The notes beneath the pieces are model-generated. The model did not search any database. It had not been told where the DNA came from and saw only the letters and a list, made by a program, of their open reading frames with translations. From Phoronis australis (lineage: Eukaryota; Animalia; Phoronida), in assembly GCA_002633005.1 (NCBI GenBank), contig NMRA01000043.1, positions 1,134,689 to 1,198,688 on the forward strand: a stretch of 64,000 nt of DNA. Reading direction: 5' to 3'. The position numbers and the translations under genes were made by a program. Of this stretch, positions 9,121 to 63,397 are shown in pieces (positions within the stretch are counted from its first letter, which is position 1; every line of letters starts with the position of its first letter).

Positions 9121-9159
9121 GATCAGGGTACGTGTAACCCGACCAGCTGACATAAAAAC

Positions 9160-9280
9160 AAAAAACAATTTGAGGAGTACAGTCAAAATGATTTGGGGTG
9201 TTCCCAGAGCTCCCACAGCTGAATCTTTAAACACAATTTTATGAGTACACCCAAAATGATTTGGGGTGTACTCAGAGCCA
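9160..9280. repeat. Two-copy ~70-bp tandem repeat
   Basis: CAATTT..GAGTACA..CAAAATGATTTGGGGTGT..CAGAGC occurs twice. Confidence 0.6.
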
Positions 9281-9857: not shown

Positions 9858-9967
9858 GGAATCCAAGCCATGTTGTAGCTCTTCAGACTCTTAAAATCAT
9901 CATCTAGCAATTCTTCGGCTACTAATTTAATAATCTTCCTGTGATGCTTCATTTTTTGTTGTTCCAT
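9858..9967 (-). CDS. First coding exon of DED-gene paralog A (N-terminal half of a death effector domain)
   Basis: Acceptor ctctctttctacag before 9986, ATG at 9967, donor GTAAGT after 9858; MEQQKMKHHRKIIKLVAEELLDDDFKSLKSYNMAWIP; homologous in sequence, phase and flanks to 40715-40603 and 46659-46547. Confidence 0.75.
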
Positions 9968-10079
9968 GGCTTCTTAGTGAAAGTTCCTGTAGAAAGAGAG
10001 TAATGTTCATCGCATGATTTAACACAACAATTGCTACATTGTTTTTCACTACGTGTTCTTGTAAATAACTATGTAAACA

Positions 10080-11008: not shown

Positions 11009-12007
11009 TTTACCTATCGACATTCAAATAAAATATCGAAAAGAATGTACCTCGAGTATAAATGTACAAATAAAAATGACAATAGCTTTCGCAAATACAC
11101 AACTCAGGGGAGTGTACTGTACAAATAGGGCATGCTGGAATGGTAAAAGAGAAACTGCAGACGAGCGTAGAGCGCAGTAATGCTAGAACCTACGCGAGAT
11201 TACGTGAGATATTTCCGTTTATTTTTAATGAGAACACATGATTTTGGCTAGATTTCTCTAGCCACGAGACAGCTACTGAACTCTACCTGGGCTTAGAAAA
11301 TGATACAGAGGAACCTACACACAAGGCATGCGCGATTAGTACAACTGAAACTACAGAGAGAGCATGCACGAATGGTGCATGGGAAACTACACATATATTT
11401 TAGCCACCACCGGCACCTTTGAAACTATAAACTCACAATTTTACAATGACACTCACGGTCAATTAACATGTGCTACCGGAGAAAACGAGATTACGACAGA
11501 TAACGACTTCGCCACGTAATAATCTATATTTACCTCTCCAATTTCATTGTACATATAAAAAGTATCCTATTTCAAAGAAGAAAATGTATAAACGACCACT
11601 GTTGCTACAGTAGTGACAAAGACGCTACTATATTACGGTAAGACACCCGGTATCCGGCCTAGAAGAGAAAAGGACAAAATTTTCACTAATCGAAACGGGC
11701 TGAGTGATAACACAAGTTAATGTTTTATATGTACCAAACATGAACAGTGAAGAACCTCACCTGTAGCTGAAATTGAAGGGCACGAATGAACTCAAATTTC
11801 GATTTCCAATTCTAAAGAATATTCAGCCAAAAAAGCTGAAGTCACCCCAACTTGAGACCAGTTCTATGTAACATAAGTAGGCCAAGTCGTGAGCAAAATT
11901 ATATGTTATACCTGTTGTAAAGTCTATTTAGAAAACCTGCTTCCTCCTAGCTCCAACGATGAAATTCTGTGAACTTCGTTTGAAAATCACGTATAACGCT
12001 CACTTGG

Positions 12008-12017
12008 GGGAAAACCC
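12008..12017 (-). promoter_or_regulatory. Rel/NF-kB-type site upstream of DED paralog A
   Basis: GGGAAAACCC (GGGTTTTCCC on minus), conserved at 54859-54868, ~100 bp upstream of a conserved CAG|GTAT donor. Confidence 0.45.
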
Positions 12018-12714
12018 AAACTGACAAAGCGCGGACCCGAGTTGAAAACCCAGCAGTTGAGTCGATATTGACTGTCATGGCCTTTGCACTAATTTCAGTG
12101 GTCTTTGTGCAAACTGAATGGGAAAGCAGTTTCGTGCAGCAGGCAGTGATGATTATTATTGGTTGTAGTTCAGCAGATTGTAAAACGACTCTGAAAAAAT
12201 AACCATTGACATATCCCTACATGTAATGCATGGCAAAATAATCGTGAATGTGTACACAGTAAACATAACAGTATTGGCCCAGTACCAGTTTTCATGAAAA
12301 AATTAATTAACACGAGATGCATTACAGTGTAATTTTATTTTTTTAACAAAACTTTCCACCAGATGACTCATTGAAAACCGCCATTTTGAAATTTCCGTTA
12401 GGAGGCACTGAACAGTTCTCATAGGGATTTGCCTATCAGAACACACGTCAATGGGCTCTTCACCCTTTCTTCACTCTGTCAAAAACTGCATGCAAATAAT
12501 GAACAGATTTGAGTCATTTCACATCACAAACCCTACAGATGAGCACAGAAACTTTGTACTCTCTTGTACTTTTGACCCTTTCACTCCCAGTGGAAACCAA
12601 GCTGAACTAAGAAAAATAAGGGCAAAAATGCAAAATCGGCACTTTTCACCCTTAAATCACCACTTCCCTGCCGATGCACGAGTAAAACCAACAATAGATT
12701 CTGAAACAACGTGT

Positions 12715-29130: not shown

Positions 29131-29254
29131 ACTATTTGACTTTTTTAAAGTATTATAACGAAAGAATACTTCTTGCTAAGCAATTGAAAGAAGCTCCTGA
29201 GCACCAGTTTTCATGAAACACCTGCTAGTATAGAAAAGTTGAGAACATTGCAAG

Positions 29255-32194: not shown

Positions 32195-33300
32195 CAGATT
32201 CTACCAGCAATGCCATGGAGCTGCTATGGGATATCGTGTGTATCCGACGTATACATGGAGGAGTTTGAACAGACAGTCTTGGCGTCGGCACCCAGACCCC
32301 CACCCATCTGGCTCAGTTACGTGAACGACACTTTTGTCATGCTCCCGGAAAATGACATCTCCACCTTCACTGGTCACATCAACAGTATTGACAACTGTAT
32401 TCAATTCACCATGGAGACAGAAACCAACAGAGCCTTACCTTTCTTGGATATATGTGTACACGTAGTTGATAATGGTTCCATCAAAGTCAAAGTCTACAGG
32501 AAACCGACACATACAGACCAATACCTCCAGTTCTCATCCAACCACCCTTTAAAGCACAAACATTCTGTCGTTTGTACCCACCTGGATAGAGCTGATCGTT
32601 ACATCACTGACTACCGATACTATGTCGAAGAGGTTGACCATGTTGAAGATGCCTTGCGAGCTAATGGATACCAGGAATGGATGTTCACAGACCCCCCTAG
32701 TCGTAAATCTTCGGAAAGAAACGATGGTCCCTCCGTTGCCATCCCATACATAAGAGGAGTGTCTGAAAGCCTACAACACACTTACAGAACACACGGAATT
32801 TCTTCATACATGAAACCTATATACACCCTCCATTCCGTACTAGTCAGAAGCAATGACCAAACCCCGATGGCTAAACAATGTGGGGTCATATACCAGCTGA
32901 AATGTGACCAGGATCGCAATCACTCCTACATTGGAGAAACAAAGAGACCGTTCCTTACCAGATTCAAAGAACATCAGAAACTAAACAGACCAACAGCTGT
33001 GGGGGAACACATATTGGCGACTGGGCATTCCATCTCTCTTGCGTCATCCAAAGAACAAAATTGGTGTGTTCGCAAGCTCAAAGAGTCCATAAACATCAGC
33101 AGTCACCGCCCCCTCTTGAACCGGGACCGAGATCTCCACTTACCCCCGTGTGTTCCAACATTCTTAACCTCATTCATTGACAAAGACCTGGCGGACAAGG
33201 TCGAAACCTCTGCAAACAACCTACAGTACCACGTCTCTAAGTAAGTGATCATCTTATACTACAATGCCTCTAGAGACCAATGACGAACCTACTCTCCAAT
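32195..33300 (+). mobile_element. 5'-truncated Penelope-like retroelement (RT C-terminal part plus GIY-YIG endonuclease)
   Basis: FYQQCHGAAMG (frameshifted), WLSYVNDTF (YVDD mutated), FTMETE..LPFLD, VYRKPTHTDQYL..SNHP, GVIYQLKC...YIGETKR..RFKEH. Confidence 0.9.
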
Positions 33301-33867
33301 CTTTGGAGTTAGCCAAGACGTCCTTAAAAGGCGTTTTCGGCCATAGGTCACAGCAGTGCACGAATCATTAGGAGGTAGATAGCCTAGTTTGGTTGTTCAA
33401 ATCCTTTCATGATTGAGAAGAATGGGCAGCTGGGCATCTGTAAAGTCGGTCAAAGAAAGGAGTGTATTTTGGGTGAAGAACATGCTTTAAAGGACGAAGT
33501 TTATTTCATTTTTGTTCAATGTCAAAATGAACATGATCTGGGGGAGCTTGTACTGCGTATGATTGAGTTTGGCAAACACAAACCTTGAACTGAACAGCTG
33601 TTAGTAAGACACGTAGTCCTGGCGACAAGAATTCCACTGCCAAACCTATTCCTTGTGATGTAAATTTAACTTGAATAGCAAAAAAAAAATATGTAGAGAA
33701 CACTTTGAAAACTGACATGTACTTCTTGTAAAATATACGGGGAGTCAAATTGACCTACAATGTGTGTCACGAAGCTCATCTCCTTCGGCCAGTCTAATTT
33801 GTCTTTCAGTAGAAGAATGGGCACCTGCACCTGTGCAAAAGTGGTCATCTGCTGCCAAAGAGTGTCC

Positions 33868-34110
33868 TTAAGTGGTCCACGATTTGTCTCCGTACTGAAC
33901 TCTGACCCCCTCCCCTAGTAGTTTAAGGGTTATCTTGCGCATCGCGTGTTCCACGGCGCCGCCTTTACCTTTATAACCCTTTGCCTGAGCGGTGACGCCA
34001 GAGCATATCGCCAAACCATCCCAAACTAATTTAAACTTTCTTATTCTCCAATCGACTTTTATGTCGCACACCATTGGGTTTCCTTGGTTAGGTCCTGGGA
34101 TGATGGTTAA
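33868..34110 (-). CDS. Terminal exon: anti-lipopolysaccharide-factor-like domain
   Basis: Strong acceptor ctttttctttttgattacag; Cys(34068)-x20-Cys(34005) basic/hydrophobic hairpin and GAVEH (33960-33946), as in horseshoe-crab ALF. Confidence 0.8.
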   Translation of the reverse strand, partial: LTIIPGPNQGNPMVCDIKVDWRIRKFKLVWDGLAICSGVTAQAKGYKGKGGAVEHAMRKITLKLLGEGVRVQYGDKSWTT

Positions 34111-37100
34111 CTGTAATCAAAAAGAAAAAGTTCAGAAACCTTCCCATTTTATACGTAATTTTTTACCGTCATTTAACCAGAAGTGGAATTTTAATGACGT
34201 TATCCAGCAAGAACAAGCATTCGCTCTAAACTACAATTTTTAGTAACATAGTTTATACCGTCTTTAGTTGCCGGCAAAAATCACAAGATTTTCTCAAGCG
34301 ACTGCGCTGCGTGGTGTTCCAGTGAAAGCATATGCACGAGTGCCTTTTTGCACGTAGAAATATTCTTAATCTACAGGTATGCGAGGTTTTGCTTCATGTA
34401 CGCGCACGTTTGCTTAATCTGCGTGTAATTTTGCCTAATCGACGTGTACTTTTGCTAAATCTACGCGTATTTTTGCCTAATTTGCACGTCGTGATTTTGC
34501 TTAATCTAGGCGTATTTTAATTCTTAAACGATCATTGTTCTGTTCTTAATCCATTAAGTTGATAGCACGGACGTGATTGGACTATATGAACTGGTTAAAC
34601 GTACGCGTAGATAAGCAAAATACGCGTAAATTTAGCACCTTTCTACGAGCAGAAAGATACATGTTTAAGAACCCCTTGGCGCTTCATAGAAGCGGGCTGA
34701 GACCGAGTCATTTACTGGATTTCCGTCTCTAAATAGCTTGTGTGGTAGAGTGCATAAGACATCTAAAACGCACCTTTTCTGTTGGACCAGATGAAATACC
34801 CATCGTAACAGTGACGTCAGTGAGCTTCTCAAGCTTTTCTACAGGTGGCGATGAGGTACTTCCTGTAGAACACACCAAGAGGTTAAAAGCTATTTATTGC
34901 CGGCATTGAGGTAACTACATGAACTTGAATTCATACGTCGTAAAAAAGAAAGCAAGCTTAGGAAGTTCATGTTTTCAAACGTAAACGAATTTAAATATTC
35001 ATCAGATAACTTTTGGTTAAAGCATCAGATTTGTCTTCAAATGTATTGAGTCCACATGCTGAGACAAGGAAACCACAAGCACCCGACGAGAAAGTTCGTA
35101 AAAAGCTCGTCAATTTGTAAAACCTTCATTTTAAAGCTCGATATCTGAACCAAGAAATTTCGACGAGGCAGGACTGACTTGTCCATTACTACCGACAATT
35201 ATAATCTCAGTGAAATCGTTTTCCAGGCTATGTTACTCGAAGGGAAATAAAGCCTCTCTTTGGAACATCGTTTATTACTGGGCGATCATCGGCTCTTGCA
35301 CACTCTAAGCAGGTTATATGCACTACCATATTGCACGTTACAAATTGCTGCCAGTCTACATGTACCTTGTATCAGAGATCGCGTCTCGGCTGTGGAATCA
35401 ATCTCCGTCCCGCTTCCATGTATTCCTGCAAATTTCCATTCTCTCATTAGACATTCTTCCTAATCTCAACACCAGATGTTCATTACAGCACAGAAATTTG
35501 AGGAGCTTGTTTAGACTTTTTCATTCTTAATTAAATACCAAACGAGTTCAGTGAACTTCGTGAATTTTGAGTTTAAAGGGATCTCTATCAGTTTGTGACT
35601 TTACTGGCGTAAGGAAATTCCTACACCAAATTAAAATTTGTAATCCACACTAGAGGAATCTAAAGCTCATTGCGTGACCGGTGGACAATGAATTATCGGT
35701 AGACTTGTCGAGAGCTCTTTAATTTCTCACCTGACGTGCTGTAAAGAAGCCAACCAATCAAGGGAATCACAAGTGACCACATTGCACGAGGAAAATTCTG
35801 GGGCAATTTCTGAAGCAATCGCCTCCGAAACGTGATGACACTTGCGTCGCCTGAAATAGACGCGGTGCGTATGTACGTGTAGATCGGCATTTCCTCAATG
35901 TTTTTGAAAATGTTTTGAATTTCGCTTCTGAAATTCCTGGTCATACAAATTGTGAACACAAACCGATAAGAGATTAATTGCACTGGTGCAAAGCGAAAAC
36001 AAGGCGTGGAGGGAATGAACGGATTGTGAACATTAACCATAAGATTAATGTCCTGTTATTAAGATGAATATTTATGTTATGTTCGAACCCACGTATAATA
36101 ATATAATCTTCACATACTCGCTGACTGAGTTGTACAATTGTTAAGTAACAAAACGAGCCACGTGGTCACATGTTTACCACTGAAATGGCCACTCCATTGG
36201 TCTTAACATCCTTTCTAAAGTAGAATTGGCCAATTTACACTTACCTCTAGTCTATTTATAGTGGAATAACGTTTCTATCTGTCATTTCTCAGGAGATACA
36301 AACTTCTTAAAAGAACAAGCACGGGAGTATGGCACACTCATAGCGGTCGATGATGAGCAAGCTGGGATTGCCTTAAGGCTGTCAGTGCAATGCTATAACC
36401 ACTACACCACCGAGTCATACATTAACTTAGAGGGAAATTTGTTATAGATACACCTTCTTTGGGAGTGGTAAGCAGGCTTTATTTGCCTGCTTGCAGGGTG
36501 ACTGAATACATTGTGTTTAGCGATCTTCCTTATGGCTTAGCATGTTTCAAGGTCAAGTATCCGGATACTTTCCCACTGGCTGTTCACATGTGATCTGGTA
36601 CATCTTCAGAGACCCTGGTCTCTTGTTTAGCATTTTACCACAACCACATGGGATTCTTAAAGTAATATAAGTGACGCTCTTCTTTTTTTCCATGTCTGTT
36701 TCTGATTTGACATTGACCAGCTGTCTACCCAAGTTGTCTGAGCTACGATATACAGTTCTTATATTGAATTCCTTGCATATACGTCGCAGTTTTTCAGAAT
36801 TCCAGATATGTATGTGAGACACATAGCTTGTGTGGTGTATTCTTCTACCCTGTGCCTCTTCTCTGTTATGATGTTTCTGATCCCACGAATTCTTTGATTA
36901 ACCCCTTATGTTGAATGATTATACCGGGGGTCCATCTCAGATTGGAGTGTTGGGTTACACAATTCCTTTTTTCTTGATGCCAGACACTTGATAACACCTA
37001 TCTTAACTCCTTTGATGGGAGCGGAATTGTAGTCAAGGTACCGTCCAGTTTGAGTCATGTTTAGTACACCAATGCATTTAACTGCTCTCCATTTCCAGCC

Positions 37101-40100
37101 ATGAACCCATCAAGGAATGGTATGCTGTTATTGTCCCCCACTTCCTGGTGTATCTTAATGTAGTTGTTGTTTACGTGCTAAGGAATATCTCGATATTGTC
37201 TGGGCGGTGGTTATGTATAACGAATAGTCATCTTCATATCGTTTCCACATTTTGGGGGAATTTACTGGTTGGGATTGAGAAGTGTTTGCTAGAACCTCCG
37301 AATGCACAAAATACTAGTAATAGCGATGATGCCATTGGCAGTTCACAGGTCTGCTTGAAAAAGAATTTCACCATTTGGAGGATGTAATTCGCTGATATAT
37401 TTTTGTTCTGAGTTTTTGTATGGCCAATCCCCGTTTTCGATCTCAGTATCGAAAGTACCACTGCTGTTGGAAGACTTGTGAACAGGCTTTAACCATTGAA
37501 ATTCACCATTAGGTAATTGAGGTCAGTGCTGATTAATGTCAGCATTTTCGCGGAGTCAGTTTTTGCCAATTAGTGGGGATGTCATGCCGCTGAGGAACTT
37601 AGCTAGCATGTGACATCTGAAGATGGCTTCCGAAGAAATGACCGACCGAAATGTCGTGCCAAAGTAGATAGGCTGGAAGTTGGCGTAAACAGACCAATAG
37701 ATTTTAGAAAGTAATGATGTTTCTACATCACCTCAAAGCAGTTTTAGAAAAACTCAATTTGTCTTACAACTGCATAAACTTATCATTCAGTTACGCAGGC
37801 TTAGAAGTTTCCTAATCTGGTAGACTCAGATTCCATGTAACTTACTTGGAGTGCTTGCAACTTCTTTTACTCGTTTGCCGTCGTATTCTGAAAATTGAAG
37901 CAATGGACTGCACTTGGAATTTAAATTGTTTGTAGTCACGAATCGTTTGTTTCATTATGTTTTACTGGACAATGAGGTTATGCTAAAATAGATGAATGCA
38001 ATTCACTCTCTACATTTATTTCTCTGCAAACATAAAATGCACAGTCAGAACTGTAGAAGGGTAAAAGTTCGTACCCGAGAACACATCAAGTAAGGACCGT
38101 AGATACAACCATAATAGTGGAGTCTTCCTTTACAGTCACAAACACACACACGCACAAAACGGGTAGCTTAATCAATACGTTAGCAGCCAAAAGATGGCGC
38201 TTCACTACATTACTCGGAATGAAAACCATCTTTGGATTTGGGAGAACTGACCGTTCGTTATTATTTGAGAGATGGCTCAATAAATTGGCTTGTTACGGCG
38301 GGTCATTTTAAGCGACGAGCACGATCTCAGTTCTTAGTGAATTGTCAGTTGCCCCATATCCCCGAAATCATTCTACCGAAGAGTAAGGAACAAGGTATGG
38401 TAGAAGTGACGCAAATCAAATGTATGTTTTACAGCTTAGTATCATTATTTTCATATTGACTCCAATGCAAACACGGTATTGTTGACGACGAAACATCAAC
38501 TTCGCACTGAGTGTTCTTTATTCAAAATATCGTTTATTTGATGACATAATGGGCGAGTGTACCAAAATATAAAAACACTCAACCTAACGACCTTGAGTAA
38601 TTATTCAGTTTGTACGTGTGCAACGTCACACGCCTTAGACCTTTGTACGCGTGGTGAAAAGAAACTCATGTAGAACACATCGGCACTTCAAACATTATAA
38701 TTTGTACACTTTTATAAAACAGACACCTGATTATAAAGTCACTTTGAAAGAAGTCCACCGAAACGAGCTTTAGAATCCATTTCAGACAATTTGAACATAT
38801 ACACCATTCCTTTTAATCATATGACGACTTGACAGAAAGTAACGTCGAACATCACTTCTACAATTTAGACTGGTGAATCTAACTCCTTCAAAGTAGACAT
38901 ATTGCATTCAAGTAATATATTATTGTAAGTTTTGAGAAAATAAACATCTATGAAGTAGTCAGTTAATAAAACTGTCCTGCAGAAAACAAGCGTGCGTCAA
39001 CCGCAGGTCAGTTGAGAGTCGATGAGACTTTTACTTGGACTGCAGCTTCACCGAAGGTCCATACCAAGTTGTGCTTCCTCTTCCATCTTTGCGATCACAC
39101 CATCCACCTTTTTAATCAAATTATCCATTTGGTACTCCTTCAGCATTTTGATCAGCTCCACGTAATTCCCGATTCCAATAACAGCTTGTGTCTCTAATTG
39201 GTTGAGAAGTTTTTCAGTAGTAGTTATGTTCTGGAGTGTAGCTGGCCTGTACAACAAAGTTAAGAAAGGTTAATAAGAATCGCTTAAAATAGACCGAGAG
39301 TTTGGATTGGCGCGAATGCGGATGGGGTGGCCAACATCGCCCAGTCACTTTCGGCCCCTCCTCAGTCTTTTACAAGTTTCACTCTCCCGTCGATACCAGT
39401 TACTGTCCCTGAATGGTAGTCATTCTCGCCTCCCCCACTCTTAGCACGCTCCCACCTCACCCCACGCCCCGCCCATTGTAATTACAACAAAGATCTTAGA
39501 TATGTTGGTACTACAAGTACTTGACTTCATATTCATACGCATACATGTACGTGACGCATTACACTACATCTCCCTGTATCAAAACAAAGGAGTATCTATT
39601 TAGTATGTCAATCTTACGTAAACAAACTGTGTCAGGATATATTTTAACTAATGCTCTTTATATTCATAGTCCTTGAACCAGGCTGGACTCTTCGATATGC
39701 GTCCGGAACGAGTCGTGTAATCTTTGGTGACGGACGTCACAATTCCATGTGGTTCAGGGCTACGAAAAGCAGGTGTTTTCTCTGAAATAACTACTGGTCG
39801 GTCTGGGATGACACTTAGGTGAATTCAATTTGTTTTAATATCTGACCGTTTTCTCGTTGGACTATGTAACTTCTGAGCTCTGCACAATTTCTACAACAGC
39901 ATACAAAATTTCCAGAGTTCATGGATTGCATGGTTACGTGTTGACCAATGTGTAAGCGATGTACATCTCCTGTTTCTTTGTCATAGTACTATTTCTGCTA
40001 CATCTGACGAGTAGCAAGATGACACTGAACATCGTCTGCATCTGGTGACATGCATGCATGGGGGAGTATCCGTGATTCGGTGATTGAAAAGGATCTCGGC

Positions 40101-40715
40101 AGGGCGCGGCTTTTCAGCTTGTGGTCAACAGGGGTAGTACGCCATCGCCCCCTTGCGGTGATTGTTTTTTTAAACGTTTGCCTCCATATCTTAGAAGTTC
40201 CTTGGCTTATTTTCATGCTAGAGGCCGAATAGTCTGTTGCTGTGTGTTTGAGCTTTTCGCTGCTCATTTAGTGTTGCATAAGAAATTTTTTTTGAATAAA
40301 ATTCCACGACAATGAATCAAATGCTTTCTCAAAATCGATCAGTAAAAGCAATCCTGGTTTCTTAGCTGCCTGGGCACAAAACATTAAATCATATAGGACG
40401 CGGATATTTGCGTTCATAGTTCTTCCCGAAACGAAACCTGTCTGGTCCTTACCGATTAGTTTTCCCAAAACGGATTTTAACCTAAGCTATTGGTCGCTGA
40501 ATAAGATCGATCAGCGTCTGTCAAAGGTTAGCAGGAGTTGGTTCACAATTTAGCTCATGCACCTAAAAGGGCCTAGAGCAAAAACAAAACCAGTAAACTT
40601 ACATTATCCAAGTCTTGCAATAGTCCTTCAGTCTCTCAAGATCCGACATGAGCACGTGGTCGGCTACTGTCTTAATGACCAGGCGGTGCTGCCTTCTTCG
40701 TTCTTCCTGGTCCAT
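33868..40715 (-). CDS. DED + linker + anti-LPS-factor-like domain protein, 242 aa; exons 40715-40603, 39246-39065, 37887-37846, 35425-35366, 34862-34774, 34110-33868
   Basis: All introns GT-AG, phases 2,1,1,1,0, 729 nt open. MDQEERRRQHRLVIKTVADHVLMSDLERLKDYCKTWIMPATLQNITTTEKLLNQLETQAVIGIGNYVELIKMLKEYQMDNLIKKVDGVIAKMEEEAQL-EYDGKRVKEVASTP-RIHGSGTEIDSTAETRSLIQ-GSTSSPPVEKLEKLTDVTVTMGISSGPTEK-LTIIPGPNQGNPMVCDIKVDWRIRKFKLVWDGLAICSGVTAQAKGYKGKGGAVEHAMRKITLKLLGEGVRVQYGDKSWTT*. Confidence 0.75.
34345..34640. repeat. Degenerate ~20-bp minisatellite with inverted copies (MITE-like), in the last intron
   Basis: TTTTGCTTAATCTACGCGTA-like unit ~8 times, reverse copies at ~34600-34640. Confidence 0.65.
36270..36416 (-). 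mobile_element. Possible tRNA-derived SINE remnant
   Basis: Minus strand begins GACTCGGTGGTGTAGTGGTTATAGCATT (A-box-like); no clear B box. Confidence 0.35.
36550..37620 (-). mobile_element. Degraded Penelope-like element in intron 3 of the DED-ALF gene
   Basis: Fragments FFKQTCELPMASSL (cf. G.PMGS.L) and SEKLRRICKEFNIRTVYRSSDNLGRQLVNVK...RIPCGCGK, many frameshifts. Confidence 0.75.
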
Positions 40716-41926
40716 GGTCTCTTAGTGAATGAGAGTACTGTTCATTGCGTCATTTAACACAGACAGCAGTTGCTGCATTGTTTTTCACAAAATATAGGGC
40801 AGTTTTTTGACAAAGTGTTCGTATAAATAACTATATAACTCTTTAATCCGACATATCAAATTTCAACTAGACTACCGTATAGAATGTATCTTGAGTATGA
40901 ATAAACAAATAAAAATGCCAATAACTTTCGCTCAAACACAAGTCTTCATCAGGGGAATACAGAGAGAATGGAAAGTACAGACAAGGTATGTGCGAATGAT
41001 AAAATAGGAACTACAGGTTGGGGTACAGTTCAGCAACGCTAGAACCTACGTTAGGACCTCCCTAAAAGCAAGAGTTCGCGAGATTACATGACACTGTCGT
41101 GTATTTCAAACGAGAACTCGTGGTTTTGGCTAGATTTTTCAAACCGCGAGAGAGCTACTAAACTCAACCTGAGCCCGGTCTCCAATCTCCGTACTCAGAC
41201 TCATACTCATACTCGAGATTTCATACTCAAAATCGTGGTCACTGGAGTCGTACTCAAAAAGCGTATCCAATTTTGCATTTCGAGTAGACTCCAAACGTAC
41301 TCAAATCTGACACTCATACTCGAGTTGCTATGGAACTCTTTATGATGTGAAATGCAAAACCACGCAAAGTCGCGCTGATTCATCGTTCCCTATTGGCATA
41401 GACCACCTCAGCAACTACATTATCGTCTACTGTCTTTACAACTACAAGAGTAGGCCTATAACGTGGAATTCTAAGTGTTCTGTACCTGTTATTCATTTTT
41501 TCAGTTTCAATACAATATTCTTATACCATTTCTTTGATACATTTGGCAATTATTAAGCTTTACCTCTTGAGTTCCTCATCTCCCGAAAATATCTTAAGAA
41601 ATTTGTAACAGCTTATCACATCAAAGAACCCCTGTTCTCTCTTGCTAATTTAGTATTGACGTAGAACCCATTGCTGTGTAGGAACAGAGACCGTAGAGAG
41701 AGAGAGAGACGTTTCACCTAGCGAAATCCTATTGGACGACCACTGGCGGCCATTGTTGTTTCATGGACCGTAGAGACGTCTAGCGGGTGTGTGTGCGAAA
41801 AAAGGAATATGGCTGATACTCTGGTCAGTGGTCACAGAGACAAGATATTTTATCTGATCTTGTAGTTCATATAGATTTCCCATAGTTAATACTTCTGAGA
41901 ATAGTGCTGCTTCAAGTAACTTCAAA

Positions 41927-42322: not shown

Positions 42323-43091
42323 ATAAATTGGCTTGTTACGGCGGGTCATTTTAAGCGACGAGCACGATCTCAGTTCTTAGTGAATTGTCAGTTGTCCCAT
42401 ATCCCCGAAATCATTCTACCGAAGAGTAAGGAACAAGGTATGGTAGAAGTGACGCAAATCAAATGTATGTTTTACAGCTTAGTATCATTATTTTCACATT
42501 GACTCCAATGCAAACACGGTATTGTTGACGACGAAACATCAACTTCGCACTGAGTGTTCTTTATTCAAAATATCGTTTATTTGATGACGCAATGTGCGAG
42601 TGTACCAAAATATAAAAACACTCAACCTAACGACCTTAAGTTAATTATTCAGGTTGTACGTGTGCAACGTCACACGCCTTAGACCTTTGTACGCGTGGTG
42701 AAAAGAAACTCATGTAGAACACATCGGCACTTCAAACATTATAATTTGTACACTTTTATAAAACAGACACCTGATTATAAAGTCACTTTGAAAGAAGTCC
42801 ACCGAAACGAGCTTTAGAATCCATTTCAGACAATTTGAACATATACACCATTCCTTTTAATCATATGACGACTTGACAGAAAGTAACGTCGAACATCACT
42901 TCTACAATTTAGACTGGTGAATCTAACTCCTTCAAAGTAGACATATTGCATTCAAGTAATATATTATTGTAAGTTTTGAGAAAATAAACATCTATGAAGT
43001 AGTCAGTTAATAAAACTGTCCTGCAGAAAACAAGCGTGCGTCAACCGCAGGTCAGTTGAGAGTCGATGAGACTTTTACTTGGACTGCAGCT

Positions 43092-46000
43092 TCACCGAAG
43101 GTCCATACCAAGTTGTGCTTCCTCTTCCATCTTTGCGATCACACCATCCACCTTTTTAATCAAATTATCCATTTGGTACTCCTTCAGCATTTTGATCAGC
43201 TCCACGTAATTCCCGATTCCAATAACAGCTTGTGTCTCTAATTGGTTGAGAAGTTTTTCAGTAGTAGTTATGTTCTGGAGTGTAGCTGGCCTGTACAACA
43301 AAGTTAAGAAAGGTTGATAAGACTCGCTTAAAATAGACCGAGAGTTTGGATTGGCGCGAATGCGGATGGGGTGGCCAACATCGCCCAGTCACTTTCGGCC
43401 CCTCCTCAGTCTTTTACAAGTTTCACTCTCCCGTCGATACCAGTTACTGTCCCTGAATGGTAGTCATTCACGCCTCCCCCACTCTTAGCACGCTCCCACC
43501 TCACCCCACGCCCCGCCCATTGTAATTACAACAAAGATCTTAGATATGTTGGTACTACAAGTACTTGACTTCATATTCATACGCATACATGTACGTGACG
43601 CATTACACTACATCTCCCCTGTATCAAAACAAAGTAGTATCTATTTAGTATATCAATCTTACGTAACAAACTGTGTCAGGATATATTTTAACTAATGCTC
43701 TTTATATTCATAGTCCTTGAACCAGGCTGGACTCTTCGATATGCGTCCGGAACGTGTCGTGTAACCTTTGGTGACGGACGTCACAATTCCATGTGGTTCA
43801 GGGCTACGAAAAGCAGGTGTTGCCTTTGAAATAACTACTGGTCGGTCTGGGATGACACTTAGGTGAATTCAATTTGTTTTAATATCTGACCGTTTTCTCG
43901 TTGGACTATGTAACTTCAGAGCTCTGCACAATTTCTACAACAGCATACAAAATTTCCAGAGTTCATGGATTGCATGGTTACGTGTTGACCAATGTGTAAG
44001 CGATGTACATCTCCTGTTTCTTTGTCATAGTACTATTTCTGCTACATCTGACGAGTAGCAAGATGACACTGAACATCGTCTGCATCTGGTGACATGCATG
44101 CATGGGGGAGTATCCTTGATTCCGTGATTGAAAAGGATCTCGGCAGGGCTTTTCAGCTTGTGGTCAACAGGGGTAGTACGCCATCGCCCCCTTGCGGTGA
44201 TTGTTTTTTTTAACGTTTGCCTCCATATCTTAGAAGTTTCTTGGCTTATTTTCATGCTAGAAGCAGAATAGTCTGTTGCTGTGTGTTTGAGCTTTTCGCT
44301 GCTCATTTAGTGTTGCATAAGACAATTTTTTTGAATAAAATTCCACGACAATGAATCAAATGCTTTCTCAAAATCGATCAATAAAAGCAATCCTGGTTTC
44401 TTAGCTGCCTGGGCACAAAACATTAAATCATATAGGACGCGGATATTTTCGTTCATAGTTCTTCCCGAAACGAAACCTGTCTGGTCCTTACCGATTAGTT
44501 TTCCCAAAACATATTTTAACCGTTCAGTCTCAGCCGACGAAGTCAATTTATATGTCACATTGAGTAAGGATATGGGTCTCCAGGTTTCAAATAATGTTTA
44601 CTTTTATCTGCTGCTNTCCCCCCCCCCCCCCTCTTTCTGTGTTGATGATTACTGACCAACAGCAAAACCAGTTTTAAGTAAGCGAACAACGAAATGTCCA
44701 ATGTCAGACCAGAAAGTTAAAAAATTCCAATGAAAACCATCGGAGCCTGGGCTCCTGTTGTTTCTCATTTTTCAAGCATCGTTTGACTTCATCCTATGTA
44801 AGAAGACCATCTAATTTTTCTTTTTCTGTCTCATTCAGTTTGGAAACACACACCTTATGAAGTAGAGTTTCTAAAGCAGTATTTCTGTATTTGTACAGAT
44901 TTTCACGAAAAGTTTTGGTTTCCTGAATAACTTATTCTTCACTATTGGTTTTAGTATTGCCATATTTCCACAAAAAACATAAACTTACTTGTGTAATGCC
45001 TATTTTCTAAGTGAAGAAAATATTTGGAAGGTTTTTCTCCCTCTTCCATCCATCTTGCCCTCGACCTAGTCATAAGACCTCCTAACATATTTTGCCTTAG
45101 CTGGACAGTTTGATTACTTTTTGTTCCAGTAGTCCCCTATCAAGTCTTAGACTTTTTTCCAATAACCTTATTTCTTCGATAAGATGCTGTTCAACTCTAT
45201 CACTCTTTCTTTTTTAAGTAAATACCAAAGGAAATTGTTTTGTCGCGAATCTCCATCAACAACGTTTCAAGAAAAAGTTGATCATTTATAGACAATTGTA
45301 AATCTGAATTACTTGTGCTATCGACTGTCTGAATGTCGCCAGTCATGTACTTCTGCTTAACTATTGTAATGGTATCCTTGACCGCAGCAATATATTCAGA
45401 GTTTTTAAAGAGATAGTTATTAAATTTCCAAATGATTTTCTCCTACTGGAAACAGCACTTTAAAAAACCTACACCATGGAATAATGAAACCGGTTACTGA
45501 ATTCTATTAAGGAGTCATCAATATCGGCTAAAAGGTTTTCAGAAATTAGAAAAATATCTAGTCTGGAACGCTTCCTTCCAGCTCCCCAAGTGTATTCCTA
45601 CTATTGGGGTTCAGTTACCGCCACACATCAGTAATAGACAATTCTCTACAAGTCTCCATCAACTTAATCCGTGACTTCGGGTTGTTAACCTGTCGTGCCT
45701 TAGACCGATCGAGAGCAAGATTAAAATCGCCTGCCCAAATAACTGAGTAATTTCCTATATCTTGAATATATATAGATTATTACATGGCGAAGTCGTTATC
45801 TCCCGTTATCTAGAGCCCGAGTGGACTTTGGAGAATTATCGCCCGAGAGGCGTCAGCCCCCAAACGGTGTAATCCGGGACGAGCTTCGTAGACCACAAGA
45901 AGACAGACTGCACTCGCAGCAAAAAGTCTCTACATGAACACTTCCTTCAATTCCAATAAACACTCCAACCGCGCCGACCAGTTAATCCCAGTGTCTGTCA

Positions 46001-46659
46001 GAACAAGCGAGAAACACTCAGCGTCACACGTGTGATTTTGCAAAGTCTTCAGAGATCTTGCTTTTCTCGTGAAAAACTAGGCTTGTATAGCCTAATGATT
46101 AGGAACAATTGTCGAAAATACAGAATTTTTGGTAGATATTAGCGAACGGATTACTCACTGTTCTCTCGTAGACCGATTTTAGGACATCGGCCAAATTTCC
46201 AAGGTGATTAATAAACACAGGACCACTCACAATTCTGATATGCATTATGCTACGGAAAGTCCAATATGTTAACTGTCAACCCAGAAACATTTGGATAGTT
46301 ACCTTCAAACCAATGGGAATGTCCGAGTGCTTATTCTTTCTTCTAACCAACAAAAAGACAGATTTACCATCCCTTGACAGTGCTGCTGCGCTTATCGGTT
46401 GGAAAGAGTGTAAAACAGAACAAGACTAGGATATTGGTCGCTGAATAAGATCGATCAGCGTCTGTCAAAGGTTAGCAGGAGTTGGTTCACAATTTAGCTC
46501 ATGCACCTAAAAGGGCCTAGAGCAAAAACAAAACGAGTAAACTTACATTATCCAAGTCTTGCAGTAGTCCTTCAGTCTCTCAAGATCCGTCATGAGCACG
46601 TGGTCGGCTACTGTCTTAATGACCAGGCGGTGCTGCCTTCTTCGTTCTTCCTGGTCCAT
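43092..46659 (-). CDS. Second copy of DED exons 1-2 (46659-46547, 43290-43109; read-through stop at 43092)
   Basis: Same protein as the first copy except S->T in exon 1 (LMTDL); keeps an upstream acceptor at ~46678. Confidence 0.75.
44320..45770 (-). mobile_element. L1/Tx1-clade ORF2 remnant (APE endonuclease to RT); shorter piece at 40290-40485
   Basis: SVIWAGDFN...DVWR...SRLDIFLIS endonuclease motifs; DQTGFVSGR...NIR...LLLIDFEKAFDSLSW RT motifs; stops and frameshifts. Confidence 0.85.
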
Positions 46660-49600
46660 GGTCTCTTAGTGAATGTCCTTGTACAAAGAGAGTACTGTTC
46701 ATTGCGTCATTTAACACAGACAGCAGTTGCTGCATTGTTTTTCACAAAATATAGGGCAGTTTTTTGACAAAGTGTTCGTATAAATAACTATATAATTCTT
46801 TAATCCGACATATCAAATTTCAACTAGACTACCGTATAGAATGTATCTTGAGTATGAATAAACAAATAAAAATGCCAATAACTTTCGCTCAAATACAAGT
46901 CTTCATCAGGGGAATACAGAGAGAATGGAAAGTACAGACAAGGTATGTGCAAATGATAAAATAGGAACTACAGGTTGGGGTACAGTTCAGCAACGCTAGA
47001 ACCTACGTTAGGACCTCCCCAAAAGCAAGAGTTCGCGAGATTACATGACACTGTCGTGTATTTCAAACGAGAACTCGTGGTTTTGGCTAGATTTTTCAAA
47101 CCGCGAGAGAGCTACTAAACTCAACCTGAGCCCGGTCTCCAATCTCCGTACTCAGACTCATACTCATACTCGAGATTTCATACTCAAAATCGTGGTCACT
47201 GGAGTCGTACTCAAAAAGCGTATCCAATTTTGCATTTCGAGTAGACTCCAAACGTACTCAAATCTGACACTCATACTCGAGTTGCTATGGAACTCTTTAT
47301 GATGTGAAATGCAAAACCACGCAAAGTCGCGCTGATTCATCGTTCCCTATTGGCATAGACCACCTCAGCAACTACATTATCGTCTACTGTCTTTACAACT
47401 ACAAGAGTAGGCCTATAACGTGGAATTCTAAGTGTTCTGTACCTGTTATTCATTTTTTCAGTTTCAATACAATATTCTTATACCATTTCTTTGATACATT
47501 TGGCAATTATTAAGCTTTACCTCTTGAGTTCCTCATCTCCCGAAAATATNGGTGAGTTTCCAAAAAGAAACACTTAGTTCCACTCAATAAAACTGTTATT
47601 CAGTGGGGTAACTGGTGGGGATAACATCACCGAACAATGTTGATAGAAACTGATTGCTAAAAACTTACCAAGTAATGTTGTGTAGTCATACTAATTACTA
47701 TAGACATAGAGCACACACGGGGCCTCAGCATCCACACACTTTTTGTCAGTTAGTTGACCCTGTTGACCGCAGTTGTCCACGAATATAGTAACCTTAGGTC
47801 TTTTGGGAATTTGTGGCCACCTGTCGAAGACTTGCACCAGGGAAATTAGCAGTAATAAGGCTTAGCGCGACGACGTATTTTGATAAAAATTCCATCTTTT
47901 ACCAGTTGTTTACATGCAGACAGTCACGCATGCGCAATTCAATCACCACTAGTACAACAGCGACACCGCGAGGAGAATTCTCCGAATAGCCCCATTTTGC
48001 ATTTCTAGTAGACTCCAAACGTACTCAAATCTGACACTCATACTCGAGTTGCTATGGAACTCTTTATGATGTGAAATGCCAAACCACGCAAAATCGCGCT
48101 GATTCATCGTTCCCTATTGGCATAGACCACCCCAGCAACTACATTATCGTCTACTGTCTTTACAACTACAAGAGTAGGCCTATAACGTGGAATTCTAAGT
48201 GTTGTGTACCTGTTATTCATTTTTTCAGTTTCAATACAATATTCTTATACCATTTCTTTGATACATTTGACAATTATTAAGCTTTACCTCTTGAGTTCCT
48301 CATCTCACGAAAATATCTTAAGAAATTTGTAACAGCTTATCACATCAAAGAACCCCTGTTCTCTCTTGCTAATTTAGTATTGTCGTAGAACCCATTGCTG
48401 TGTAGGAACAGAGACCGTAGAGAGAGAGAGACGTTTCACCTAGCGAAATCCTATTGGACGACCACTGGCGGCCATTGTTGTTTCATGGACCGTAGAGACG
48501 TCTAGCGGGTGTGTGTGCGAAAAAAGGAATATGGCTGATACTCTGGTCAGTGGTCACAGAGACAAGATATTTTATCTGATCTTGTAGTTCATATAGATTT
48601 CCCATAGTTAATACTTCTGAGAATAGTGCTGCTTCAAGTAACTTCAAAACAAGATATGGCGGCTGCAGTCCCTAAAAAGAGGATGAGAGGAGCTTTTTGC
48701 GCTGCAGCAACAGTAAGTTGAAAAATCGGGGTTTGAACTTCTCCCCAATGAATGATAAAGACAGGTGAGATATACGAGTGATACAAAAAATTCTTTTTGT
48801 GAATATGCTGCCAGTCGCCCATTGATGTTGGCAAAGTGATTTGAAATTGTCTTACCTGTAAGTTTCAAGGTTTTATTTGATCACTCAAAGCAAAATACAT
48901 GGCCTTGATGATGGGTACTTGATTTTAGAGCCTACTCCCACTGAAAAACGCCCGTTATTCAGTGGTAGTAACTGGTTCTAGAATGAATTTTGAGTCAGGG
49001 ACTCACCTATCAAACTATAACCGAAATTGTCCTGCACGTGTTTCACGACTTAGGGCCTACTGATAACTGGTGTTTCTATTCTATGATTGGATCTAAATTG
49101 TAATTTCTTTCATTTCTTCAATTCACTTTAGTGTTTATACATTCAGATCCAAGAGATAGGTGATAAACAGCAAATGTGTGGACCTGCTAAGGAGAAATGC
49201 TGTGATGTTAACTTAGTCCAGTAGACTAGTATGTGTTTAGGTCTAAACTGTGATGGGCCTTCATTATACTTTCAAGGACCTATAGTCCGAAGAGTCATTA
49301 CTTGAAAAATATATCAATCAGGCGTTACTCCAAAGCAACATTACTTAGAAGAGTGATTACTTTGGGAAAGAGTGAGTGACGCTGCATAGACAATATTGCT
49401 GATGCCACATATTTTTTCCTGCATGTTGTATTTGTTATAATGTAAATGATATTTTTCCAGCCAATAGGTCACAGCTACGACACGAGTGAGCCCAGTGAAA
49501 CACCCCCATCTGCTGAGCACCATAGAGGGCTGCTTTAGTAAAGCTCTTAGGGGAGGTAATAGGACATAATTAATAATGACCACAATTTTATCCTCCATGA

Positions 49601-53340: not shown

Positions 53341-54858
53341 GACACGTTCGGTTGCGTTACCTGACACCTGACGGCAGAAGGAGGCGTTGAAATTATCCAA
53401 TGACGTAATTGGTTTCACACGCAGTCTTTTCAGTAGTTCACAACACGGGTTACTGGTGTCAGCTTATCGCTTGACTTCTTCGTTTAACGCCAAAAAATCA
53501 TCAAACTTCGATGTAAAACCCTTAAAAATACACCGAGTTCTTAAACGTGTTGTTCTATTTCGCTGTTACGGATTCATTGGTATTTGGACACACCCGGGCC
53601 GTAGCCTACAAAGATCGGCAAGGTCCGTAGCAGGAGTTTGGGGTGAGTTCGGAGATAAATTCGAACTATTCTTCCGTGAAATACAGACAGGAGAGCATAG
53701 ATTTGTGTTATTTAGACTTGTGATTTTTTGTGTTCTATACACACAAAAGGCTTGTTATCCCGGCCTGTGGCTCGGAACCCGATCAGGCCGTAGTTGTCGC
53801 CGGGACGTGCACGAACATCAACCAGCATGAGTTGGAAACTGTACTTACAGTCACGAAAAAAATATAATAGTGAGCCAAAGAAATAATTTACATGTAATTA
53901 TTTATGTAAATTAGCCACGAAACTGAAAATCTACTTACTTGTCGGGGGGCCGCGAAGTCGGGTTCACCTTCCACAGACCGTCACAGGGCAAAGATTGTAC
54001 AGTAACAATGATTTGAATAATGTATTTTGCATTTCTAAATAAAAATTCCCCTAGCATGTGACCATAGCATATAAAATCGAGTAATTGTTTCACAACAGCT
54101 TTCTGTCAGCAAACACTGAATTAGCATGCGCTCACACGGCCTCGGTGCCCGGTCAATTACTTTTATTGCCGACATCAAAAATCGGTAACGCAGTGGTTTA
54201 TTCATTGCTGGCTGCTCAACATTTNACAAGTCAAGGCTTCGCAGCACTGGCTGGAGCATAAACAGACATTACGTCGGACGTTTTGTTTGAGTAGGCTTGT
54301 GAACGTACGGTCGGGATTAATAAAGGATTAACTCGAACCAATCTTCAGTCAATCTTCGCACCGAAAGCTATTAGCACCGGTCTGTAACAACCTGCGCCCA
54401 CCCACACACGGGGAAAACGTGACAAAGGTAAACTACGGAGATTGGAGACCGGGCGCAGGGCTTAGAGAATGATATAAGGTAAACTACTGAGAAGGCAGGT
54501 GCAGATGGTACAATGGGAACTACAGAAAGGGCATGAGCTAATTATAACGTTTAACGTCAATAAACATGTGCTGCAGAGAAAACGGGATTACGACAGATAG
54601 CTTAGCTGAAATTGAAAGCGTTCCAATTTCAAAGCTGCTTCAGCCAAAAAGCTGAAATCACTTCAACTCTAAGTCAGGCCGACTTTAGACCAGTTCCAAT
54701 AATGATAGCATAAGGTCTTGAGCAAAAATACACGTCATACCTGTCGTAAAGTCTGTTTAGAAAACCTGATTCCTTCTAGCTCCAACGATGAGAATTTTAT
54801 CAACTTCGTTTGAAAGTCACTGGTGACTGACTGACTGGTCGTTTTTCGTATGACGCTG

Positions 54859-54868
54859 GGGAAAACCC
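54859..54868 (-). promoter_or_regulatory. Rel/NF-kB-type site upstream of the DED-ALF gene
   Basis: GGGAAAACCC conserved with 12008-12017. Confidence 0.45.
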
Positions 54869-60833: not shown

Positions 60834-63397
60834 AGCTGGCGTGCGTTCAGTAGACGCTAGGACCTACGCTAGAACCTAGCTAAAACCTAGTCAAAGTCAC
60901 GTGTTCTTATTTAAAATGCACGGCAATATCTCACGTAATCTCGCGAAGTCTTGCTTTTTAGCGAGGTCCTAGCGCTACTAAACGGGAGGCTGTTCTGTAC
61001 CTGGCGGGAGATTCGATTTGATTGAAAGTCCTTTAACCTTTGACCTCGGATAAGTAGTAAACAAGTATTCACGCGGTTGAGCGGTTCCGAGGTGGTTCCG
61101 TTAAATCTTTTTTTCTCGCTACGCAGTATATGTTTTGTATTTGAAGTTCCCCGAGAATGAAGATAAGGTATTTATTTTACTAGACACATGTGAAATATTG
61201 TAAAAATGGTCATTTTTTGTGAATAAAGTTGGATATAACCTTAAGAAGGACTTGTTGATTTTAAAGCACCACGGGACCGTGACTCCTTGTTCTTTGCATA
61301 AAGACACCCCCAGTCAAAACAGTTACTCATTTCACTAGAATATTTGCGTTTACTCCCACCTCTGTTTATTGCACGATAGTGTGTCCCAGGTTGCCAGAGT
61401 CTCCTCCGCGACCAATAATTTCACGTTTGCCTACTATTGAATACTAGTAAGACTTCCTACGCCAGTGTTAACTATACATCGGCGAAAGGCACCACGTATT
61501 TGCCTTGATGTATGAGTTTGAGCAACGCTATTAGACAAATAATTTAGTTACGCGAACAAAGTAGGTTAACTTTCGTAACATACAATTACTTTTCACTACC
61601 CACGTTTTGGAAGTATTGATAGAAACACTGTTCATTAAATCACTTTTTTATTAAGAATACATTGATATCAGATAGCATCCGATAATTACGTTAACCGATG
61701 TGCAGTTCCATTAGGACAAATAGTCCCCTGCGCTCGAACAACGCCATGAGTGTATCCAAGCACACTGAATAAAACATAACTCGTACAATTCACTACAATT
61801 TGCTCATATACACATTATTCATGAACTCCCATTTTAAAAGTGAGCATATTTTTTAGGCTTTAAAAACAATGCATTCTGCTCTTAATTACAGCGTGCTCTT
61901 TATTTTTATGTCTCAAATGAATTGTTTTATAAACCTAAAAAGACGTTCTCTATTGAAATGGCAACTGCGTGAATAAGGTACATGTATATACTTGATTATA
62001 GACTGCCGTTAATCACAGACGTGCACTATTCATAGGATGGCGTCATCAGCACTACAAAAATGTTGTACACGATTTGCTGCCGTATTTTACATTAACCCCT
62101 GTGCCGAACAGTTTCCTCGTCACGTCACACAGTGCGTTCACAATCGCGCTTGACTTGCTGGAGCGCCCCCTAGTAGAGCCAGAAGCACCCGGGCACGTCG
62201 CAGTTGCATCGTAGACCAATTCCCATTTGCTGATTCTCCATTTCCACTCAACGTCGCAGTTGACAGCGTCGCCTTGGTTTGCTCCGGGGGTAATGGTTAC
62301 CTTTGAAAAATAAATCTTTCAAGTCATGTCTGAGCATAATGTTAGAATTATGAATGTGACTATTTGACTGCGGTTCCCGGCATATGACCACCCGTATCCG
62401 AAATATGACTCTAATTTTTACTCATGTGTTTCGTACATAGGTGTATACACCTGAGCTTCAGTCAGAGGCACTAGCAGCTATATGTTGTACACATCCAGAT
62501 CTTGTGTGATCTATCTCCATTCTCTTAGCATTTTTTATTTATATTAAGTGTTCGTGCCGTTTCAAGTACTTGCCCTCCTTGGTTTGCTCAAGTTCTTCGC
62601 TTGTGTGCCTAATCATTTCCGGATATAAAGGAACAGCTTCGAATAAAGGCGCATGAGCCAAATGAAATACGCGCATACTCACTACCAGCACGAATTCGGA
62701 GTTGTGCTTTAAAACGAGGCGTTGTGTCCAATATACAATGGTTATGCATGTTTGGAACACGCACGTTTGCGTTGTTAAAATTGATACTTAAACGAGGCTT
62801 TGTGTCCAAAACAACAATGCACAACAATAAGTTTTTGCAGCTCCATCAAAGCGTGAAAGTAGTGAATAACATACAAAGATAAAACAGAGTTGAAAACCAC
62901 CGTGTTTTGTCGTCCAGGAACCCTAAAATGAGGGGAGGTGACTGTTGTTTACAAACATGCTGACACCTTCAGAAGTTGTCTAATTCACTGTACCATATCA
63001 ACAAACCTCAGTGAACACTGCAACATTGCGATGTCAGAGAAGTACTGTGCGACACAAACGGCTGGGCGTAGCGGTATACCAGTAACGTGAAACTGTTGTG
63101 TTTGAGGACCTAAATAATCCTGGGATCTACGTTCTTTGGAGAAAGTTTATTTTTTTGCAAAAAATCGGGACCACTGCCGCAAGACCGACCAAAAACGTTC
63201 GAGAGGAGTGAGAACGTTTTGCCGACAAGCGAGAGACCTGCCTCCCGTTCAGTAACGCTAGGACCTCGCTAAGAAGCAGGACTTCGCTAGATTACGTGAG
63301 ATATTGCCGTGCATTTTAAACGAGAGCACGTGACTTTGACTAGGTTTTAGCTAGGACCTAGCGTAGGTCCTAGCGTCTACTGAACGCACGCCAGACT
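60834..63397. mobile_element. Non-autonomous DNA element with ~160-bp TIRs
   Basis: CTGGCGTGCGTTCAGTAGACGCTAGGACCTACGCTAG... (60836-61000) inverted at 63235-63394; older family fragments at ~11175-11250, 41030-41130, 46985-47090. Confidence 0.8.

Follow-up and report, generated by a model that had tools for sequence, protein, structure and literature searches.

DED and ALF-like exons share one strand of a Phoronis contig

We analysed a 64,000-nt stretch of the Phoronis australis genome, referred to here as the window (assembly GCA_002633005.1, contig NMRA01000043.1, positions 1,134,689 to 1,198,688). Its minus strand carries exons that likely encode a divergent death effector domain (DED), assigned here to DED gene A, followed by exons for a domain resembling the anti-lipopolysaccharide factors (ALFs). 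The original prediction had joined these exons into one cytosolic protein, a leaderless lipopolysaccharide (LPS) sensor that would recruit FADD/caspase-8-type proteins. We found that the DED exons belong to a transcript that ends in a 3' untranslated region (UTR) of its own, and the two domains probably lie on separate transcripts. The features are collected in Table 1.

Table 1. Exons and related features of the DED and ALF-like genes in the window
Feature	Position	Strand	Remarks
DED gene B exon 1	9858..9986	-	37% identical to gene A exon 1
DED gene B non-coding first exon	11912..12030	-	5' end approximate
ALF-like terminal exon	33868..34110	-	Cys-x20-Cys hairpin, helix, final strand; AATAAA at 33505; depth ~2
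Ser/Thr/Pro-rich exon, ALF-like gene	34774..34862	-	junction to 34110, 16 reads; Met at 34803
60-nt candidate exon, optional spacer	35366..35425	-	moderate signals (acceptor 6, donor 5); no reads
120-nt candidate exon, skipped by the 242-aa model	35731..35850	-	basic stretch, ATG 35782, strong phase-1 donor
Candidate end of non-coding first exon, ALF-like gene	36245..36260	-	strong donor 36244; no sense reads
42-nt candidate exon	37846..37887	-	phase 1-1, top-tier signals
DED gene A terminal exon (exon 2), copy 1	38000..39246	-	stop 39050-39048, then ~1 kb 3' UTR; end approximate
Likely poly(A) signal AATAAA	38015..38020	-	near end of read-covered UTR
DED gene A coding exon 1, copy 1	40603..40715	-	first two predicted helices; junction to 39246
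DED gene A exon 2 and 3' UTR, copy 2	42323..43290	-	cut by assembly gap 41927-42322
DED gene A exon 1, copy 2	46547..46677	-	intact acceptor, ATG 46659; 111/113 coding letters as in copy 1
Non-coding first exon, DED gene A	54741..54860	-	3' end 54741 fixed; 5' end approximate
ALF-like paralog terminal exon	62052..62300	-	45% identical, four Cys; tblastn E 8e-22
Exons 1 to 6 of the 242-aa fusion model	40715-40603, 39246-39065, 37887-37846, 35425-35366, 34862-34774, 34110-33868	-	GT-AG, compatible phases

The predicted join is correct as a reading of the letters: six minus-strand exons with GT-AG boundaries give a stop-free frame of exactly 242 amino acids (aa). The fourth, 60-nt exon is the most plausible of six frame-preserving AG..GT candidates of that length, and a five-exon version without it gives 222 aa. 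The exons adjoin on one contig because 29409-41926 is free of assembly gaps. We compared this model with RNA from three stranded raw runs (X1-X3) and one contig set (X4), all matching the species label. Reads were aligned to 33300-41700 at likeness 92, using 18-19 in 100 of each raw run; junctions were listed from at least three reads, and loose read ends are those among the rows listed. Five joints were listed: exon 1 to exon 2, a contig variant of it, exon 5 to exon 6, and two inside a repeat near 41200. The exon 1-exon 2 junction was carried by 27 reads (7, 4 and 16 in X1-X3) and one contig, with a 3-letter variant in one contig, and the exon 5-exon 6 junction by 16 reads (9, 2 and 5). The shorter side of the junction reads was at most 48 letters in all three runs. 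Thus, two of the five junctions of the model occur in RNA and its three middle junctions are unlisted. None of the listed joints left 39065, and none linked a DED exon to the 34110 exon, although rare joints would fall below the listing limit.

The DED transcript ends before the ALF-like exons

The fusion model leaves the DED through a donor at 39064, a phase-1 site internal to the terminal exon that matches 3 of 7 consensus positions, a score reached by 41 in 100 minus-strand GT dinucleotides of the window. Sense reads crossed this donor in all three raw runs and continued to about 38000, with depths of 6, 5 and 19 at 38943 and of 2-14 per bin across 38077-38919. Depth dropped to 0.05-2.3 in the bin 37796-38076 and to 0 below it. 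The reads past the donor differ little from the window, and the read-through RNA is mature because sense depth in the intron-1 bins (39482-40043) was 0. Reading through adds five further codons after 39065 before the stop, which gives an open reading frame of 103 aa.

At the 5' side, loose read ends at 40731 (17 reads in X3) and an X4 contig match 54743-54760 exactly. These letters lie in a non-coding exon that is followed directly by a donor at 54740 and is conserved in paralog B. Because reads pass 39064 into the stop and the UTR, and because the read ends at 40731 match the exon at 54741, we conclude that DED gene A produces a DED-only mRNA running from the 54741 exon through exons 1 and 2 to an end near 38000. 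With this transcript, and with no DED-to-ALF junction listed, the claim of a single leaderless cytosolic DED-ALF protein is not supported.

Candidate exons in the gap and the 5' end of the ALF-like gene

Among open phase 1-1 candidates of 30-150 nt on both strands, only the 42-nt exon and the 120-nt exon have top-tier splice signals. The mean depth of the 42-nt exon bin was 0.38, 0.05 and 2.31 in X1-X3; the last value is expected from a UTR tail of 11 reads, and in X2 the bin holds at most 14 letters of reads. Had this exon been covered as deeply as the DED transcript (~10), each run should have given 9 reads on it. The bins of the 60-nt and 120-nt exons held no sense reads in X1-X3.

In the 120-nt exon, 17 uncharged codons and then a strong donor come after an ATG with a purine at -3, making this the most hydrophobic of the five ATG-to-strong-phase-1-donor candidates in the window. 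Its best 19-residue hydropathy is 1.24-1.38 and its insertion-energy estimate is positive. Because the hydrophobic run spans only ~15 residues, the segment resembles a signal peptide more than a membrane helix. Joined to exons 5 and 6 it would give a precursor of 128 aa, which the 60-nt exon would lengthen to 148 aa. The exon is also open in the fusion frame, where it would extend the product to 262 or 282 aa and place a basic stretch before the hydrophobic run. The predicted absence of a signal peptide is therefore true of the 242-aa model, which has no hydrophobic leader, but only because this exon was skipped; a separate, in-frame exon with an ATG and a hydrophobic run does stand upstream of 34110, albeit with no reads on it. 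Further upstream, the strong donor at 36244, one of 22 such minus-strand donors, has a phase-1 in-frame stop just before it.

Exon 5 is covered by reads of a diverged copy. All 42 sense reads over 34833-34837 differ from the window at three places (18/18, 15/15 and 9/9), and in 15 X1 reads there is a loose end at 34850, where they leave the window sequence. Compared with the window, the diverged copy also has an insertion of 12 letters, a length divisible by three, upstream of the Met at 34803. Since the exon-5 reads come from such a copy, the exon that precedes exon 5 there may differ too much from the window to align. Sense depth over the last ALF-like exon and its UTR was low, and the ALF-like exons keep all their frames and splice sites.

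Domain assignments

Exon 2 alone matched Pfam PF01335 at E 0.001 and 19.8 bits (cut-off 35.9), covering positions 32-78 of 82. Pfam scans were run per exon rather than on the joined exon 1 and exon 2 protein; exon 1 alone gave no Pfam match, and its length suffices to supply the remainder of the DED profile. A structure model of exon 2 (pLDDT 69) has four helices, where a DED is a six-helix death fold. In a fold search with this model, 8 of the 50 rows listed were death-fold entries at Z 3.7-4.3 (for example 3oq9_A: Z 3.9, rmsd 2.3, 52 aligned), not above unrelated rows. Foldseek returned 0 matches for the exon-2 model, the ESM Atlas no usable match for the DED query, and a weak word-based search of exon 2 against longer proteins 0 of 48. 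PDB sequence searches gave no ALF or DED match, their best rows being unrelated at E 0.03-0.4. The original prediction had cited a residue pattern that includes DL...V, and here the weak PF01335 match speaks for the domain while the pattern itself does not hold throughout. The letters read D-N-L, and the E/D-RxDL charged triad, as defined in a part of PMC4558505, is replaced by Q-M-D-N-L before the last helix, a position assigned by eye. We conclude that DED gene A likely encodes a divergent DED, though this is not proven.

For the last exon, the match to PF11630 (Anti-LPS-SCYG) reached E 0.033 and 14.8 bits, and for the paralog exon near 62 kb E 0.0015 and 19.1 bits, both below the 25-bit cut-off in scans of single exons that covered 32-83 of the 100 profile positions. 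Both usable ESM Atlas rows for the last exon, the top two, were ALF clusters (0.81 and 0.78), which serve as leads only. Two cysteines, at positions 15 and 36 of the terminal exon in both paralogs, enclose the 20 residues that had been predicted for the last exon. The polar/non-polar pattern of ALF loops, taken from a part of PMC6499195, was matched at 13 of 15 sites in the 34110 exon and at 14 of 15 in the 62-kb paralog, and the two loops ranked first and second among 60 open C-x20-C loops in the six frames of the window. Shuffling gave P 0.0005-0.014 according to the scoring choice, in a test that is non-specific in that any amphipathic hairpin scores well. The loop of the 34110 exon holds 5 basic and 3 acidic residues, and its net charge is +2, compared with -1 in the paralog.

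A structure model of the last exon (pLDDT 76) has four strands and one helix, in the order hairpin, third strand, helix and final strand, with the hairpin strands at 13-24 and 27-36. Three fold searches with this model returned no ALF chain among the rows listed; the best rows were the designed binder 8wwc_D (Z 7.3, rmsd 2.1, 64 aligned) and folds like the double-stranded RNA-binding domain (dsRBD) at Z up to 6.1. We did not adopt a role in binding double-stranded RNA, given that these matches are middling, the arrangement is common and the model has no counterpart of the first dsRBD helix. Searching 1.84 billion proteins with the last exon yielded six matches, P0002-P0005 being tandem-repeat proteins and P0006 having no family. 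The top row, P0001, contains no matched stretch and was set aside as a repeat artefact. Weak word-based searches confirmed 0 of 24 candidates among longer proteins and none among proteins of similar length, and in a metagenome contig scan 0 of 248 pattern matches were confirmed. Support for the predicted ALF identity from Pfam, the ESM Atlas and the property pattern is thus weak but consistent, below the Pfam cut-off and with no ALF chain in the fold rows, and the same weak but consistent support holds for the DED. Judged from its sequence, the terminal-exon domain is likely ALF-like, and we do not call it an ALF.

Paralogs and duplicate copies

Read along the minus strand, the genes are ALF-like 2 (62 kb), then DED A (54.7-38 kb), then ALF-like 1 (35.8-33.5 kb) and lastly DED B (11.9-9.9 kb). 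No upstream exons of the 62-kb ALF-like paralog were found in the window, and no second exon of DED gene B was found in 1-9857, a segment with a single N at 9303. DED A is present twice at 98% identity (38280-41592 and 42323-47549). The two copies agree at 199 of 199 exon-2 letters up to the stop and at 761 of 768 UTR letters, and exon 1 of copy 1 lacks 13 letters at 40732-40733, including the upstream acceptor that copy 2 and paralog B keep. Reads carry copy-2 letters at 38352, 38454, 38547 and 38552, and the read ends at exon 1 also fit copy 2. Further direct duplicates of ~98% identity (25667-27398 and 27408-29132; 41267-41926 and 47991-48648) are bounded by a single N or a gap. These near-identical duplicates are likely second haplotypes set in tandem by the assembly, and copy 2 of DED A, flanked by assembly joins, may be one of them.

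These copies raise the idea of a decaying or poorly expressed duplicate, made up of the local ALF-like exons and DED copy 1, with reads drawn mostly from sister loci or alleles elsewhere. Every exon-5 sense read does differ from the window, the junction reads have short sides of up to 48 letters, the UTR reads carry copy-2 letters and copy 1 has lost its acceptor. The ALF-like frames and splice sites, however, are all intact, the last exon and its UTR show some sense depth, and high allelic diversity would explain the read differences as well. We consider decay very unlikely.

Other features of the window were recorded. X4 contig 3, ~95% like part of exon 2 (39137-39246), departs from the window at 39137 and suggests a further DED paralog elsewhere. 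A candidate 71-nt minus-strand exon at 5917-5987 encodes a strongly hydrophobic 23-residue stretch with no Pfam match; DED gene B exon 1 is compatible with its entry phase, and the assembly join at 9303 lies between them. On the plus strand, 31886-33244 holds retroelement remains with a 452-codon frame and a weak GIY-YIG match (E 0.003), which we take to be Penelope-like. A decayed piece resembling this element, with no Pfam match, lies on the minus strand at 36400-37800, between the 42-nt and 120-nt exons. A LINE-like reverse-transcriptase fragment (44307-44597 and 40300-40480, minus strand; RVT_1 E 1e-12) sits in the first coding intron of DED A, is longer in copy 2 and draws reads of both strands. 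The abundant repeat at 41167-41450 reaches depths of 40-75 per strand in the raw runs and 377 in the contigs.

Two genes or one

Our preferred reading, which we hold at only slightly better than even confidence, is that two separate genes lie here, one giving the 103-aa DED-only transcript and the other, 2 kb further, a secreted ALF-like protein with its own signal peptide. The ALF-like precursor would begin at ATG 35782 (128 or 148 aa, depending on the 60-nt exon) and be exported and cleaved, and its Cys-x20-Cys hairpin would close outside the cell. By analogy with the ALF family, the basic face of the hairpin might bind lipid A or other anionic molecules of microbial surfaces. With 3 acidic residues beside 5 basic ones in the loop, no strong killing is predicted. 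The DED-only protein could serve as a small adaptor or decoy by binding the DEDs of FADD/caspase-8-like proteins, as PEA-15 and short FLIP do, and an immune cassette of two genes, duplicated in tandem long ago, may underlie the gene order. A leader would agree with the description, in a section of PMC6213531, of ALFs as leader-bearing precursors.

Several observations weigh against this reading. The 5' end of the ALF-like gene is unproven, since reads are absent on the signal exon and diverged on exon 5. For a window-like transcript at depth 2, the probability of zero reads on the signal exon in three runs is ~0.0002, which means that the exon is unused or that the expressed form has diverged too far at this point. 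The six letters upstream of exon 5 in the X1 reads agree with an intron acceptor at 5 of 6 positions and with the end of the signal exon at 3 of 6. At the DED end, the implied depth near 39065 is 20.8 in X1 and 15.8 in X2 compared with 6 and 5 at 38943, and these bin means leave room for reads that stop near 39065; in X3 the implied depth is 8.9 compared with 19, leaving no such room. A weak donor with a downstream poly(A) site also resembles a composite terminal exon. Furthermore, two genes leave unexplained the 42-nt exon, whose splice signals are excellent, whose phase suits the weak donor and whose position is directly beyond the poly(A) signal. Finally, duplication of a single gene would account just as well for the alternating gene order and for paralogs of comparable divergence (37% and 45% identical).

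The 5' observations could instead mean that the ALF-like gene is separate but leaderless, starting just upstream of exon 5 and using the Met at 34803 to make an intracellular protein of ~90 aa. That Met has a good start context (A at -3, G at +4), no upstream exon has reads, and the acceptor-like read ends fit. The reads that suggest it, however, come from the diverged copy and reveal only six upstream letters, and the 12-letter insertion upstream of the Met is a multiple of three, as in coding sequence. A leaderless start would also leave a well-formed signal exon without use, and we regard it as distinctly unlikely.

The observations at the DED end bear on a one-gene reading with two outputs. 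In this alternative, intronic polyadenylation would yield the DED-only isoform, and a long isoform (exon 1, exon 2, the 42-nt and 120-nt exons, optionally the 60-nt exon, exon 5 and the ALF-like exon) would yield a type II membrane protein of 262 or 282 aa. Its layout would be a cytosolic DED, a short signal anchor, a Ser/Thr-rich stalk and an ALF-like domain outside the cell; ligand-driven clustering would nucleate DED filaments, with the short isoform as a brake. The join is open and stop-free, and the only two top-tier frame-preserving candidates in 64 kb both fall in the 4.2-kb gap and share the needed phase. Five Arg/Lys residues precede the hydrophobic run, metagenomic PF11630 proteins P0002 and P0005 also start with a basic-then-hydrophobic anchor, and the alternating DED/ALF order, the similar paralog divergence and the unexplained depth near 39065 in two of three runs fit as well. 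Soluble and long pairs made by intronic polyadenylation have reported precedent (PMC2926593, PMC3708835). Moreover, if exon 2 splices onward, the membrane form is the natural product because the cytosolic form needs an extra exon skip. Against this stand the missing 39065 junction and the near absence of reads on the 42-nt exon, though window-like DED reads exist. The hydrophobic run is short, with a 19-residue hydropathy of 1.24-1.38 and a positive insertion-energy estimate, and an open frame of 22 codons ahead of the ATG would often arise by chance (an estimated one in three). The strong donor at 36244 with its in-frame stop offers a separate non-coding first exon, the DED copy beside the ALF-like exons is the one without an exon-1 acceptor, and the weak word-based searches found no longer protein with either domain. 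We therefore consider the membrane isoform unlikely.

The cytosolic fusion of 242 aa fares worse still. Its join is open, both domains are weakly supported and two of five junctions are in RNA, but the other three are unlisted and the dominant DED transcript ends before the fusion exons. It also requires the weak donor, and it skips a top-tier exon while keeping a weaker one. The hairpin disulfide is unlikely to form in a cytosolic protein. That bond is required for the activity of the shrimp ALF peptide tested in PMC6499195, where strongly active loops have 5-6 basic and 0 acidic residues rather than 5 and 3. We judge the fusion to be highly improbable, and a headline claim that was built on an untested exon join is removed.

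Comparison with known systems

A DED attached directly to an ALF-like domain was not found described in the main texts of the open literature searched, where the two domains together led only to a survey of one crustacean. The comparison with receptors applies only if the two domains are fused. Death receptors such as Fas and TRAIL-R, and caspase-4/11, likewise combine a recognition module with a death-fold platform; the receptors are type I proteins whose death domain uses FADD as a bridge, and caspase-4/11 bind LPS through a CARD. A type II receptor with a cytosolic DED and an outward ALF-like LPS-binding domain, encoded with its DED-only inhibitor by one tandem-repeated gene, is a tentative construct on our part. 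If true, it would be a microbial sensor that bypasses the death-domain/FADD bridge, and the long isoform would have a receptor architecture not found in the literature or database searches made.

The predicted DED-only protein resembles PEA-15, FLIP-S/R, procaspase-8L and procaspase-10G in being short and free of a catalytic domain, and truncated DED-only splice forms are described as known regulators in a part of PMC4558505. It differs from them in having one DED rather than a tandem, in its altered RxDL motif and in an exon 2 that alone falls below the Pfam cut-off.

The metagenome proteins P0002-P0006 share 33-43% identity with the ALF-like domain over 37-53 core residues (E 2e-6 to 2e-4), and P0002-P0005 pass the PF11630 cut-off. 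Unlike the Phoronis domain, the metagenome PF11630 proteins lack the two cysteines and have several repeats, two have an N-terminal anchor, and none has a DED. For the architecture of P0002-P0005, several Cys-free PF11630-like repeats, no description was found in the literature searched. PMC6213531 describes ALFs as apparently exclusive to marine chelicerates and crustaceans, whereas a table row in PMC12220480 lists a rotifer gene with PF11630, so the domain is already on record outside arthropods.

With the ALFs themselves (PF11630; LALF, ALFPm3), the Phoronis domain shares two cysteines flanking 20 residues, the alternating polar/non-polar pattern, a predicted beta-hairpin followed by a strand and a helix, and likely a leader. 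The two paralogs differ in charge (+2 and -1), as shrimp ALF groups do in a section of PMC6213531, and the 62-kb paralog with four cysteines resembles ALF-related peptides set apart in the same section. The differences lie in the predicted fold and in gene structure. A solved ALF has three helices on a four-stranded sheet, whereas the model of the last exon has four strands and one helix, its last element being a strand in place of the third ALF helix. Shrimp ALF genes are divided into three exons, the second of which encodes the sheet (PMC6213531), whereas here the hairpin and helix share one terminal exon; a Ser/Thr/Pro-rich spacer precedes the domain, and the candidate leader spans 17-18 residues rather than 22-28. 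The preferred two-gene reading thus yields a divergent, duplicated ALF-like family whose gene structure and C-terminus are unlike those of the horseshoe crab and crustacean peptides.

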